Below, in pieces: positions 13,126 through 15,840 of a stretch of 32,000 nt of DNA (position 1 is its first letter; each line of letters begins with the position of its first letter). This DNA is from Candidatus Electrothrix yaqonensis. Lineage in GTDB: Bacteria > Desulfobacterota > Desulfobulbia > Desulfobulbales > Desulfobulbaceae. A model generated the notes under the pieces. It saw only the letters and a list, made by a program, of their open reading frames with translations. It searched no databases and was not told where the DNA came from. The DNA lies in contig CP178758.1 in NCBI GenBank assembly GCA_047651235.1, forward strand, positions 210,001-242,000, in the 5' to 3' direction. The translations under genes were made by a program, and so were the position numbers.

Positions 13126-13300
13126 TCCTGCTTCCCCGCAAGTTTCAGAAAACGGTTGAATTTGGCCTGTAAAATATCTTGCTATCTTGTCGGTCCGAAA
13201 GTATACAATGCATTACTGTCTGTCATCAATATTGTCTGCTGCGGAACCGGAAATCTGGAGCTGATCTGCCATCCCCTGTTATCCTCCATAAGAAAGTAAT

Positions 13301-14113
13301 ATGACATTTGTAAATAGCAATAGAGAACACTTTATTGACCAAAGGTTTGATAAGGACGTGTCAGATATTGAATATAGCAACAAGCTGTTTTTAAGGATAG
13401 TTGCAAAGGATAAAAGATTTGAAAAAGTCGTTTTCAAACATTCAATTTTTGACACTACATATTTCAGAAATTGCGTTTTTGACTCTTGTGATTTTACAGG
13501 TTGCAGATTTGTAGGTGTTAATTTGTACGGGGCCAAGTTTACAGGATGTAAATTTGACTATGCCACTTTTGAAAGGACAATAATAGCAAGTGACGTATTA
13601 GATAATTGTTGTCCGGGTTGGGATAACCTTAAGCTGAAGTTCGCCAGAACATTGAGAGTTAACTTTCAGCAACTTGGAGATTCAAAATCAGCAAATAAAG
13701 CCATTAAAGTTGAACTTAACGCAACAGAAATTCATTTGAAAAAATCTTGGCGGTCAAATGAATCTTATTACAGGAAAAAGTACCGTGGTTGGAAGCGCAT
13801 AGGAAAATTTTTAGAGTGGTTGAACTTTAAAATTTTGGATTTTATTTGGGGAAATGGTGAAAACACATACAAGTTGACAAGAACTGTAATTTTGCTGCTT
13901 ATCGTCATGGCCTTATTTGATGTTTTAAGTTTTCAAGATCCAACAAGAATTAAAAGCTATAGCGATGCCATCCTTAAAATGCCTGAAATTTTTCTGGGGA
14001 TAACTTCCCCGAAAAAATATCCAAATTGGTATATTGCGATTATTTTTTTTACGAGATTGGTTGCTATGGGATTTTTTATGTCAATTATTATAAAAAGATT
14101 CAACAGGAGGTAA
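13301..14113 (+). CDS. Pentapeptide-repeat protein with C-terminal two-TM, channel-like membrane module (cassette gene A)
   Basis: Pentapeptide-type repeats 'FEKVVFKHSIFDTTYFRNCVFDSCDFTGCRFVGVNLYGAKFTGCKFDYATFERT'. The C-terminus carries 'WGNGENTYKLTRTVILLLIVMALFDVL' (TM1) and 'NWYIAIIFFTRLVAMGFFMSIIIKRF' (TM2). AT-rich codon usage, unlike the neighbouring genes. Confidence 0.7.
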   Translation: MTFVNSNREHFIDQRFDKDVSDIEYSNKLFLRIVAKDKRFEKVVFKHSIFDTTYFRNCVFDSCDFTGCRFVGVNLYGAKFTGCKFDYATFERTIIASDVLDNCCPGWDNLKLKFARTLRVNFQQLGDSKSANKAIKVELNATEIHLKKSWRSNESYYRKKYRGWKRIGKFLEWLNFKILDFIWGNGENTYKLTRTVILLLIVMALFDVLSFQDPTRIKSYSDAILKMPEIFLGITSPKKYPNWYIAIIFFTRLVAMGFFMSIIIKRFNRR

Positions 14114-14115
14114 AT

Positions 14116-14742
14116 TTGCATATTTATGCCTTTGGATCTGTTTGTAGAGGAGAAATCGATAACCGGTCTGATATCGATTTGCTCGCGGTTGTTGAAGGTG
14201 CAGCTAATAGATTTGATTCGTCAATTTATTCGATTTATTCTTATAAACGGCTCGCAGAATTGTGGAAGGAAGGAAATCCATTTGCTTGGCACCTTTCATC
14301 CGAAGCAAAGATTATTTTTTCTTCAAACGGCAAGGATCCTCTAAAAAAACTTGGATTTCCAGGACCTTACAAGGAATACAAAGAAGATTGCTGGAAATTC
14401 TATAATCTTTATTGCAAATCAATTGAATCAATTTCTAACGGGAGTAACAGTTTAATTTTCGAACTATCGACCATCTTTTTGTCAATAAGAAATTTTGCAA
14501 CCTGTTTCCTTCTGGGAAAAAAAATAAAGAAATTTTCAAGACGATCAGCATTACAGATGGGTGAACAATCTATTAAAATTCATCCTGACACATTTGAACT
14601 GCTGGAACGAGCAAGAATACTAAGTATTCGAGGTGTCGGAACCAGTATAAATCAAGATGAAATCAAATATTCTTTGGAGGATATTTATTCCATAAAAAAA
14701 TGGATGGCTGATTTACTTCTGGAGGTGGAATACAATGGATGA
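14116..14742 (+). CDS. Minimal (pol-beta-fold) nucleotidyltransferase with helical C-terminal domain (cassette gene B)
   Basis: TTG start at 14116, 5 nt after AGGAGG (14105-14110) and 2 nt after the gene A stop (TAA at 14111-14113). NTase signature 'IYAFGSVCRGEIDNRSDIDLLAVV' (G-S...D-x-D). The remaining ~150 aa are predicted helical. The ORF-track start at 14026 lies inside gene A and is rejected. Confidence 0.65.
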   Translation: MHIYAFGSVCRGEIDNRSDIDLLAVVEGAANRFDSSIYSIYSYKRLAELWKEGNPFAWHLSSEAKIIFSSNGKDPLKKLGFPGPYKEYKEDCWKFYNLYCKSIESISNGSNSLIFELSTIFLSIRNFATCFLLGKKIKKFSRRSALQMGEQSIKIHPDTFELLERARILSIRGVGTSINQDEIKYSLEDIYSIKKWMADLLLEVEYNG

Positions 14743-15025
14743 ATTTAATAATAGAATGGATGCACAGAGGGATATTCTCGAAGTCGTAAATCGACAAGCA
14801 GGATACTCAGAAGAACTATGTGGTCTATCAAAAAAAGCCATAGAGAGATGGATCTCATCAAATCAATTGAATCCAAAATCTGAAACTTGTGATATCTTGT
14901 TCCAAATAGCAAAGAAGTTATTTTTCTTAGCTAACAAGAGCCAAGAACAGATTACGGAAGAATATAAGGCACTGTCGTCCGAGATTTTTTTCCTTAAAAT
15001 TAATCTCGAAAAATCGATAGGATAA
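14735..15025 (+). CDS. Small (96 aa) helical protein with possible helix-turn-helix segment (cassette gene C)
   Basis: ATG at 14735 overlaps the gene B stop (ATGGATGA at 14735-14742), with GGAGGTG 7 nt upstream. 'YSEELCGLSKKAIERWISSNQLNP' resembles an XRE-type HTH by eye. Confidence 0.5.
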   Translation: MDEFNNRMDAQRDILEVVNRQAGYSEELCGLSKKAIERWISSNQLNPKSETCDILFQIAKKLFFLANKSQEQITEEYKALSSEIFFLKINLEKSIG

Positions 15026-15138
15026 CCTGCCATATCTGTTGGGCGGACAAGGGTAATCAGATCAGTTTTCTGACAATATTTCAGTAAATTCAGTGTCAGT
15101 GACTTTAGCAAAGGCTTTTTACCCTACCGCTGCTGAAC

Positions 15139-15166
15139 TTAACGTTAACATAGTTCCATATATAAA
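15139..15166 (+). promoter_or_regulatory. Candidate promoter with overlapping perfect palindrome upstream of the biotinyl-domain/birA genes
   Basis: TTAACG (15139-15144), 16-nt spacer, TATAAA (15161-15166). The 10-bp perfect palindrome TTAACGTTAA (15139-15148) covers the -35 element. The start codon is at 15187. Confidence 0.3.
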
Positions 15167-15186
15167 ATCCGAAAAAGATACCAGCT

Positions 15187-15840
15187 ATGTCTTCTTGTCA
15201 GGAAATACATTTTGACGATATTCTCGCCCGTTACAAAAAAGACCCGTATAACTATGTGGATATGTACGCTGTTCATACCGGTGAGGTCCACTTCCTGGTG
15301 GAGGAGGGCAGCACAGTTGAAGGTGTATCCGGGGAGTGGCAGCATAAACCGGGGACCCCCCTGTATAAAATCACCCGGGAGCGCAATACCAAGGCGATAA
15401 CCTCAAAGACCGGAGGCACAATCTCCGAAATTCGCTCCGATTTGAACGGCAATTTTGTCGAAGCAGGAGAGAAGCTGCTCACCATCCGGCATCCGCTCAA
15501 GAAAAAGGAGATTATCGAACGGATCCTTCAGGAAGTCCTGTTTCTCTTTGAGGCACCGGAACGGGCCCGTTATTATTTTTCCCTGGATATTCAGTCACGA
15601 ATTGATCAGAAAGGTGCCCGGTCCGTGTTCATCAAGCCGGGCGACGAAATTATCACCATGTCCCTGATGAAGCGGGATACTCCGGTGTATTATACTGGCG
15701 AACCCGGTATTATTCATTCCGTCTACTTTACGCCCGGTGACAGTATTGATCAGGGCACGCCGCTGATCGGTGTCTGTGCAGAAGATAAACTCCCCATTGT
15801 CCAAAAAGTCATCACCAGGGTCAAGGCTGAGTGGGAATAG
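15187..15840 (+). CDS. Protein with two biotinyl/lipoyl-like (barrel-sandwich hybrid) domains, non-canonical acceptor motif
   Basis: The C-terminal half, 'IKPGDEIITMSLMKRDTPVYYTGEPGIIHSVYFTPGDSIDQGTPLIGV', follows the biotinyl-domain pattern (V.GD...EAMKM....G.I..I.V..GD.V..G..L), with LMKR at the EAMKM position. The N-terminal half, 'HTGEVHFLVEEGSTVEG...GGTISEIRSDLNGNFVEAGEKLLTI', looks like a second, degenerate copy. Confidence 0.55.
   Translation: MSSCQEIHFDDILARYKKDPYNYVDMYAVHTGEVHFLVEEGSTVEGVSGEWQHKPGTPLYKITRERNTKAITSKTGGTISEIRSDLNGNFVEAGEKLLTIRHPLKKKEIIERILQEVLFLFEAPERARYYFSLDIQSRIDQKGARSVFIKPGDEIITMSLMKRDTPVYYTGEPGIIHSVYFTPGDSIDQGTPLIGVCAEDKLPIVQKVITRVKAEWE

Follow-up and report, generated by a model that had tools for sequence, protein, structure and literature searches.

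What kind of system is encoded by three tightly coupled, AT-rich genes that stand among the housekeeping genes of Candidatus Electrothrix yaqonensis? The genes, which we call A, B and C, lie in a 32,000-nucleotide stretch of contig CP178758.1 (assembly GCA_047651235.1, positions 210,001 to 242,000), analyzed here as a whole and called the window; coordinates without another source refer to it. The original prediction, made from the DNA letters, had described the cassette as a candidate conflict, defense or toxin–antitoxin-like module on horizontally acquired DNA that matched no named system. Our analysis points to a more definite answer: the insert is probably a mobile defense cassette of three genes that forms a distant sister clade to Hailong, an anti-phage system.

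Hailong, described in 2025 (Tan et al., Nature), is a two-gene operon that joins a pentapeptide-repeat, potassium-channel-like protein to a nucleotidyltransferase with a HEPN-like part (PMC13586616). In work that likewise describes two genes, the nucleotidyltransferase HalB makes a tyrosine-primed oligodeoxyadenylate (oligo-dA) that holds the tetrameric HalA channel closed, and a phage exonuclease that removes the oligo-dA triggers the system, causing the membrane to depolarize (PMC13434031; PMC13276650). The priming tyrosine belongs to HalB, as stated in one of these papers (PMC13434031), and HalA is toxic without active HalB (PMC13434031). Canonical Hailong protects against phage (PMC13434031; PMC13276650). 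Its effector is a DNA-gated cation channel.

Gene B carries much of the evidence for this kinship. It matches Pfam NTP_transf_2 (1.8e-5), and its best NCBIfam match is the model for ‘Hailong system nucleotidyltransferase HalB’ (NF051895; E 3.4e-10, 39.9 bits, amino acids 6-73). Among PDB sequences, the sole significant matches of gene B are HalB entries 9dbj, 9dbh and 9dbi (E 1e-6), and HalB is again at the top when the profile of the gene B family, which has 1619 homologs, is compared with the PDB (E 9e-8). An AlphaFold2 (AF2) model built on the family alignment (predicted local distance difference test score, pLDDT, 87.9) has a pol-beta nucleotidyltransferase core followed by a helical, HEPN-like C-terminal domain, and its top 13 Foldseek matches are all HalB chains, 9dbj among them (E 4e-7 to 1.4e-5, template-modeling (TM) scores 0.51-0.59). 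A pol-beta signature with a helical domain had been read from the translation beforehand, and Pfam agrees with it on the core, the AF2 model on both parts. D19 and D21 of gene B align with the HalB aspartates that are mutated in PDB entry 9dbi (‘D21A/D23A’), and the HalB motif G-[DN]-x-F-A-x-H-L-x-x-E-x-K-x-I is present as well. As modeled, gene B has the architecture of HalB with intact catalytic GS/DxD residues.

Gene A resembles the Hailong effector. It matches Pfam Pentapeptide_3 (PF13576) at 1.1e-10, and its best NCBIfam match, confined to the pentapeptide region, is ‘anti-phage Hailong system effector protein HalA’ (NF051894; E 5e-6, 25.9 bits). The AF2 model of gene A, built on the alignment of a family with 1139 homologs (pLDDT 88.7), finds HalA (9nyi_A) as its best Foldseek match in the PDB, aligned at full length over 297 columns (E 1.1e-8; query-normalized TM score, TMq, 0.44), and pentapeptide-only proteins reach TM scores of 0.29 or less against the same model. 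The predicted chain runs through the parts of HalA in order, from a β-helix (amino acids 9-91) by way of a helical linker to a first transmembrane segment, a short helix and a second transmembrane segment (amino acids 189-268), with a conserved KRFNRR closing the membrane part. Both the HalA profile and the HalA-like protein of Sulfitobacter align to this β-helix, and the cytoplasmic part of the protein is basic, with a median isoelectric point (pI) of 8.9. Gene A is thus modeled as a cytoplasmic pentapeptide β-helix on a two-transmembrane, channel-like tail, which is the HalA architecture; a head and tail of this type had been proposed from the letters, in agreement with the Pfam match for the head and with the structural model for both parts.

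The view that the cassette matches no named system can therefore be dropped, since profile searches, sequence comparisons and predicted structures all give HalA and HalB as the nearest relatives of A and B. The two families that the original prediction had offered for comparison, AbiE and MNT-HEPN, do not match. AbiE combines the DUF1814 nucleotidyltransferase AbiEii with the winged-helix antitoxin AbiEi, and at E up to 1 none of the three proteins of the cassette matched it in Pfam or PADLOC. MNT-HEPN is rejected on a score of 19 bits to MntA (NF047752), versus a cut-off of 60, and on the lack of an Rx4-6H motif in the C-terminal domain of B and in C; PDB entries 7ae6 and 7bxo are among the lower Foldseek matches of the B model. 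A Qnr-type pentapeptide protein was also considered and set aside, its scores lying far below the family cut-offs. What does hold is the broader logic of a nucleotidyltransferase working with a membrane effector in the manner of abortive-infection or toxin–antitoxin modules, which fits what the nearest characterized relatives do.

The genes occur as a set. A scan of one genome per species returned 135 relatives of A, of which 80 loci were fetched for gene-order counts. B lies directly 3' of A in 76 of the 80 and C directly 3' of B in 72, the exceptions being mostly contig ends or insertions, so the co-occurrence of the three homologs across genomes, on which the first description had staked its case, is borne out. 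A 2-nucleotide gap is the commonest spacing between A and B (34 loci), with a 4-nucleotide overlap in 11. B and C overlap by 8 nucleotides in the window (ATGGATGA) and by 4, 8, 14, 17 or 26 nucleotides in other loci. The TTG start of gene B is correct, because its homologs all begin M-H-I-Y-A-F-G-S. Loci of the A-B-C type occur in at least 10 phyla, including Desulfobacterota, Ignavibacteria, Alpha-, Beta- and Gammaproteobacteria, Cyanobacteria, Verrucomicrobiota and Acidobacteriota, as well as Planctomycetota, Chloroflexota, Bacteroidota, Saccharimonadales and others. Copies are found on plasmids (the 6.9-kb pGLE121P1 of Pseudomonas and a Janthinobacterium plasmid), and in IMG/VR each of the nine viral contigs with an A gene has B and C too; neither INPHARED phage genomes nor complete Escherichia coli genomes contain the cassette. 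The three genes are one conserved, translationally coupled and co-transcribed unit, mobile across phyla, plasmids and prophages. RefSeq lists its products as ‘pentapeptide repeat-containing protein’, ‘nucleotidyltransferase’ and ‘hypothetical protein’, and Hailong itself is not detected by DefenseFinder and PADLOC (PMC13586616, September 2026).

A few loci depart from this arrangement. In two Bryobacterales/Bryobacteraceae metagenome-assembled genomes (MAGs; L028, 5938-7914, and L034), an A homolog with ~55% identity stands before a convergent pair that takes the place of B and C, namely a HalB-like nucleotidyltransferase of 227 amino acids (26% identity to B, no terminal tyrosine) that overlaps a 136-amino-acid protein unlike C (hhalign E 0.06). 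Segments of ~1.2-1.3 kb separate a truncated A from an intact B-C pair in Nostoc linckia and an Acidobacteriaceae MAG (L066, 6654-7942; L075, 6594-7826), and 1.3 kb separates B from a downstream C in a Desulfovibrionaceae MAG (L045, 7436-8776); these inserts may be insertion sequences that inactivate a toxic effector. On the Janthinobacterium lividum plasmid (L176, 1-2796), the cassette stands near an ‘exonuclease’ gene and a pair encoding a phospholipase D (PLD) family protein and a DUF6361 protein, and this pair may be another defense module.

Several points weigh against placing the cassette so close to Hailong. Both family models are equivalogs, and the two proteins fall well below their cut-offs (25.9 versus 250 bits for A, 39.9 versus 190 bits for B). 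A control pair from a Sulfitobacter pontiacus plasmid (L085) gives 266.6 bits over its full length for the HalA-like protein and 185.1 bits for the HalB-like protein; more distant three-gene relatives give 27-46 bits. Identity of A and B to HalA and HalB is ~18-22%. When profiles are compared, the pentapeptide region alone aligns between A and HalA (E 1e-7), and the nucleotidyltransferase core alone between B and HalB (E 8e-7). The channel domain of A has no significant sequence similarity to the HalA-like C terminus (hhalign with 110 C-terminal halves of A as query, E 0.43), and homology in this part is therefore argued from predicted structure only, at a modest TM score of 0.44. Some loci adjoin Shedu, UvrD/Gabija-like helicases, integrases or the PLD/DUF6361 pair, in contexts that are heterogeneous; defense-gene neighbors were seen in a minority of the loci surveyed, with no formal enrichment test.

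A further difficulty concerns the C terminus of B. The priming tyrosine of HalB is reportedly C-terminal, in keeping with the sequence pattern of HalB-like proteins. Tyrosine is the last residue in 4 of 4 HalB-like proteins and the penultimate one in 2 of 2 more; the canonical HalB-like loci used for comparison were taken from plasmids, and a 72-amino-acid HalB fragment found no match in a large protein collection. In the B family, a terminal tyrosine occurs in 0 of 71 members, and 22 of the 71 have a tyrosine within the last five residues. This near-terminal tyrosine alternates with histidine or asparagine because its codon overlaps the ATG of gene C; the B protein of the window has Y206, where its closest homologs have N, D or T. 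Judging from these alignments, the B family is without the conserved C-terminal tyrosine tail of HalB-like enzymes, which could mean a different chemistry or a reversed logic. Finally, what B would make, what A would bind and how the cassette would act on phage are, for this clade, all carried over from Hailong by analogy.

With that analogy, the cassette may work as follows. B, probably together with C, would constitutively make a nucleic-acid signal, which in Hailong is oligodeoxyadenylate. Bound to the basic cytoplasmic crown of tetrameric A, the signal would keep the channel shut. A would be released when phage nucleases or DNA-binding proteins destroy the signal or sequester it, and the opened channel would depolarize the membrane, with the infected cell ceasing to grow before phage is made.

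How the cassette reached its present site can be told from the DNA around it. G+C content is 0.32-0.37 across ~13250-15200 and 0.49-0.59 in both flanks (300-nucleotide intervals), and a G+C deficit of the cassette relative to its flanks recurs in 53 of 53 other genomes (mean, 10.5 points). A metagenome contig (L087) carries the empty site: its cmoA and biotin-domain genes start 173 nucleotides apart, versus 2061 nucleotides in the window, and its proteins share 90% (PPK2), 74% (cmoA) and 83% (biotin-domain protein) amino-acid identity with those of the window. The cassette is horizontally acquired, and on this point the empty site and the G+C deficit bear out the original prediction, which was also right about the AT-rich insert with its three tightly coupled genes (G+C intervals, open reading frames (ORFs) and junctions agree) and about housekeeping genes on both sides (PPK2, a cmoA-like methyltransferase, a biotin/lipoyl-domain protein and a BirA-like ligase). 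It had reported neither an integrase nor flanking repeats, and we find the same: no integrase-sized ORF adjoins the cassette, and flanking direct or inverted repeats are at chance level, with none convincing. No tRNA was found and no Rfam family matched. The two arms of a 19-nucleotide inverted repeat (13261-13279 / 15047-15065) are only 74% complementary and fall outside the segment that the cassette has in common with its nearest DNA relative, L001. We also considered a variable hotspot between cmoA and the biotin-domain gene and rejected it: the long gaps of distant relatives hold the same conserved ~800-amino-acid and ~125-amino-acid genes, and so represent ordinary lineage-specific gene order.

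The promoter that had been proposed for the cassette, TTGCTA-N17-TATACA, does not belong to it. The empty site keeps the same element, as TTGCTA-N17-TATAAA, upstream of the biotin–lipoyl gene, which marks it as native DNA; a promoter consensus scan did not list it, and the promoter-like sites of the region were not above shuffled expectation. Insertion apparently placed the cassette between the biotin-domain gene and the element that is probably its promoter. A search for intrinsic terminators found none, and no terminator-like site follows gene C (15026-15186). With an apparently native, promoter-like element in front of the insert and no terminator-like site after C, the biotin gene may be transcribed through the cassette, or only through it. 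As a separate observation, GTTAGCC(A) occurs 10-25 nucleotides upstream of the A start in several loci from Verrucomicrobiota, Acidobacteriota, Cyanobacteria and Gammaproteobacteria (L003, L007-L010, L013); it does not occur in the window.

Table 1 Coordinates of the cassette, its parts and adjoining features in the window (aa, amino acids)
Feature	Coordinates	Strand	Remarks
Promoter-like TTGCTA-N17-TATACA	13179-13207	+	Native host intergenic DNA, upstream of the insert and outside it
Inserted segment, ~1.97 kb	13214-15181		Between divergent cmoA and biotin/lipoyl gene; homology to L087 ends at 13213 and resumes at 15182
Core cassette, three genes plus 23 nucleotides upstream	13278-15026	+	blastn, 82% identity to L001 over exactly this span and nothing beyond; only 23 nucleotides upstream of A shared
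Gene A	13301-14113	+	270 aa; HalA-like effector; stop TAA 14111-14113
Pentapeptide-repeat β-helix of A	13325-13585	+	aa ~9-95; AF2 strands E9-E91; candidate ligand-binding ‘crown’
Membrane/pore part of A	13865-14104	+	aa 189-268: helix 189-211, short helix 217-231, helix 242-268; AF2 and family conservation
AGGAGG, ribosome-binding site of gene B	14105-14110	+	Within the end of gene A; read directly
Gene B	14116-14742	+	208 aa; start codon TTG 14116; HalB-like nucleotidyltransferase
Catalytic motif of B, G7-S8 ... D19-x-D21	14134-14178	+	Invariant in the family; aligned with HalB GS...DVD
Gene C	14735-15025	+	96-aa orphan protein; third member of the cassette
Tyr77 codon of gene C	14963-14965	+	Invariant; single tyrosine in 41/68 family members; candidate nucleotidyl acceptor
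Biotin/lipoyl-domain gene	15187-15840		Downstream neighbor of the cassette

What, then, is the role of the third gene? The C family comprises 175 representatives at 50% identity, nearly all ~100 amino acids long, in which F4, R7, R12, N19, L28, R38, W39, N43, S69 and Y77 are invariant. Neither single sequences nor a 68-member family had a significant match in Pfam, NCBIfam, PADLOC, PHROGs or the PDB. We infer that C most likely acts together with B to make or present the signal, a transcription factor being the less likely alternative. C is a probable partner of B because the B family is without the tyrosine tail, because C is translationally coupled to B, and because C has one invariant tyrosine. 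Its distribution also favors a partnership with B: C-like genes are retained even in relatives with 25-30% identity in A, and no C-like gene stands beside the bona fide HalA/HalB pair of L085. The distant examples are on pGLE121P1 (A 30% identity; hhalign E 1.8e-5 for C) and on a Rhizobium lusitanum plasmid (A 25%; E 9.5e-5), the latter gene being missing from the gene table of PLSDB, which is incomplete. The literature searched, which lacked the primary paper, contains no mention of a third Hailong component.

One specific form of this partnership, which we put forward tentatively and regard as possible rather than probable, is a ‘split’ Hailong in which the priming tyrosine has moved from the tail of the nucleotidyltransferase to C. 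B would then build its oligonucleotide in trans on Tyr77 (or Ser69) of C, and either the C–oligonucleotide conjugate or a released oligonucleotide would keep channel A closed. A precedent comes from MntA and HepT, where the nucleotidyltransferase oligo-AMPylates a conserved tyrosine of its small helical partner and so neutralizes it, much as B could nucleotidylate Tyr77 in trans. Three fused metagenomic proteins (P0363, 325 amino acids; P0372, 329 amino acids; P0338, 216 amino acids) include in-frame fusions of B with C, as in P0363, and one fusion of the N-terminal half of A with C. Such rare B-C fusions count for less than they might, as they could be frameshift or deletion artifacts of overlapping genes.

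The rival that survives best keeps the Hailong-like effector and synthase and makes C a small helix-turn-helix regulator of the operon, with B priming on itself or needing no protein primer; we consider it unlikely, though worth weighing in detail. An XRE-like helix-turn-helix had been seen in C by the original prediction, and a segment of C (EELCGLSKKAIERW) does align in register with the helix-turn-helix of P22 C2 and 434-type repressors, while single family members give faint matches to YdaS, KorA, YfeC and a PHROG ‘transcriptional repressor’. Statistical support is lacking: an hhalign comparison with five XRE domains, although in register, gave E 0.22 and a probability of 0.3%, the family profile reached P22 C2 in the PDB at E 1.4-1.8, neither of them significant, and Pfam and PHROGs returned no match. 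The first putative helix of the motif is also ~3 residues short, and C is near-neutral (median pI 6.2). Moreover, the position of C as the last gene, translationally coupled to B, suggests stoichiometric co-production. No operator-like motif is common to 73 regions upstream of A, yet the putative recognition helix of C (R38, W39) is invariant across phyla.

A second alternative reverses the logic of the system, as in CBASS. B would be silent until infection, C would act as a sensor or inhibitor, and the signal would open channel A rather than close it. Nucleotidyltransferase and transmembrane-effector systems with activating signals are common. The tail of B could be read in the same direction, for in canonical Hailong the conserved tyrosine tail is where constitutive, self-primed synthesis is encoded, and an additional protein such as C could gate an enzyme that has lost it. 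However, the nearest relatives of A and B by sequence and structure belong to a system with an inhibitory signal, and C resembles no known sensor domain. We regard a signal that activates the channel as improbable.

It is more improbable still that the cassette is a selfish toxin–antitoxin or addiction module with no role against phage, in which A is the toxin and B, with C, a type VII-like enzymatic antitoxin that stabilizes the carrier DNA. The idea draws on the toxin–antitoxin-like character of Hailong itself, whose effector is toxic when its nucleotidyltransferase is inactive (PMC13434031). It also fits that MntA antitoxin is the second NCBIfam match of B (9.7e-4), that the cassette occurs on small plasmids such as pGLE121P1, and that the copy in the window sits among housekeeping genes and not in a defense island. 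Yet in the window and in many chromosomes no replicon or element is attached for the cassette to stabilize, and the canonical system does protect against phage. The HEPN RNase motif is absent as well: the only invariant histidines of B, H2 and H59, are both in the nucleotidyltransferase core, with none conserved in its C-terminal domain, and the family alignment of C contains no invariant histidine.

That B might be a stand-alone aminoglycoside or lincosamide nucleotidyltransferase with unrelated neighbors, which had been set down in advance as a finding that would undo a defense role, is scarcely credible, for although ANT(4') kanamycin nucleotidyltransferases are the next structural matches after the HalB chains (E ~1e-3, TM score 0.43), HalB outranks them by three orders of magnitude, ANT_9 scores 12.2 bits versus a cut-off of 340, and B in this clade never occurs without A and C except on truncated contigs.

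More broadly, what is new about this Hailong-related clade is its conserved third gene, the missing priming tail in B and a wide, unannotated distribution. The clade comprises more than 1000 protein clusters in at least 10 phyla and includes tractable strains of Pseudomonas, Pantoea, Stenotrophomonas and Methylomonas. Recognizing it would broaden the scope of DNA-gated channel immunity and supply new models for defense-finding tools. It also offers a natural experiment on signal priming, in which the self-priming tail is gone and a protein with an invariant tyrosine stands in its place. If C does take over priming, it would serve an immune signal as a dedicated protein primer or carrier, a new class of component in nucleotide-signaling defense. 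Whether C proves to be a primer or carrier in trans, a regulator or a sensor, any of these outcomes would inform our understanding of ‘guard’ systems that work through inhibitory signals.

Like Qnr and MfpA, A has a right-handed quadrilateral β-helix, and like ANT(4'), B joins a pol-beta nucleotidyltransferase to a helical domain; those proteins, however, are soluble, stand-alone resistance factors with no common operon context. The MntA/HepT system shares a minimal pol-beta nucleotidyltransferase with the cassette, whose predicted toxic part is a membrane channel and not an RNase. Panoptes, which pairs an mCpol enzyme with a 2TM-beta effector, holds its membrane effector off with a constitutive nucleotide signal, and loss of this signal during infection triggers the effector (PMC12657230). 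The same logic of a constant signal is proposed here for A, B and C, whereas the Panoptes signal is a cyclic dinucleotide made by a Cas10-like polymerase, and its components have no homology to ours.

Plasmids also carry HalB-type nucleotidyltransferases in other company. Pairs with a WYL-domain protein occur in Rhizobium, Bradyrhizobium, Rhizobiaceae and Klebsiella (L081, 2535-4166; L178, 1498-3163; L179, 1532-3163; L082, 457-2799), with a DUF1883 protein in between at the Klebsiella locus. The L081 enzyme passes the HalB cut-off (220.8 bits), and these pairs differ from the cassette in having a WYL-domain partner, no pentapeptide channel, a retained terminal or penultimate tyrosine and no C-like gene; they look like a separate module. 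On plasmid pLRE138 of Rhodococcus erythropolis (L177, 1-3807), the gene for a distant, 279-amino-acid HalB-like nucleotidyltransferase overlaps a metallophosphoesterase gene, and a pentapeptide-repeat gene lies ~1.9 kb upstream, with an opposite-strand gene between them. This locus may be a further arrangement of the same parts in Actinomycetota.

Hailong remains the nearest counterpart. The differences are chiefly of size and content: A, at 270 amino acids, lacks the N-terminal extension of the 371-amino-acid HalA; B, at 208 amino acids, is ~20 residues shorter than its ~227-229-amino-acid counterparts and has no conserved terminal tyrosine tail; and the cassette has a third gene in 72 of 80 loci, whereas no C-like ORF lies beside the L085 pair. 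The likenesses extend from gene order to the domains of the individual proteins. In both systems, the effector gene precedes a tightly coupled nucleotidyltransferase gene, a pentapeptide cytoplasmic domain is mounted on a small channel-like membrane domain, and the nucleotidyltransferase combines a GS/DxD core and an FAxHLxxExK motif with a helical, HEPN-like C-terminal domain. Like Hailong, the cassette is mobile and patchily distributed.

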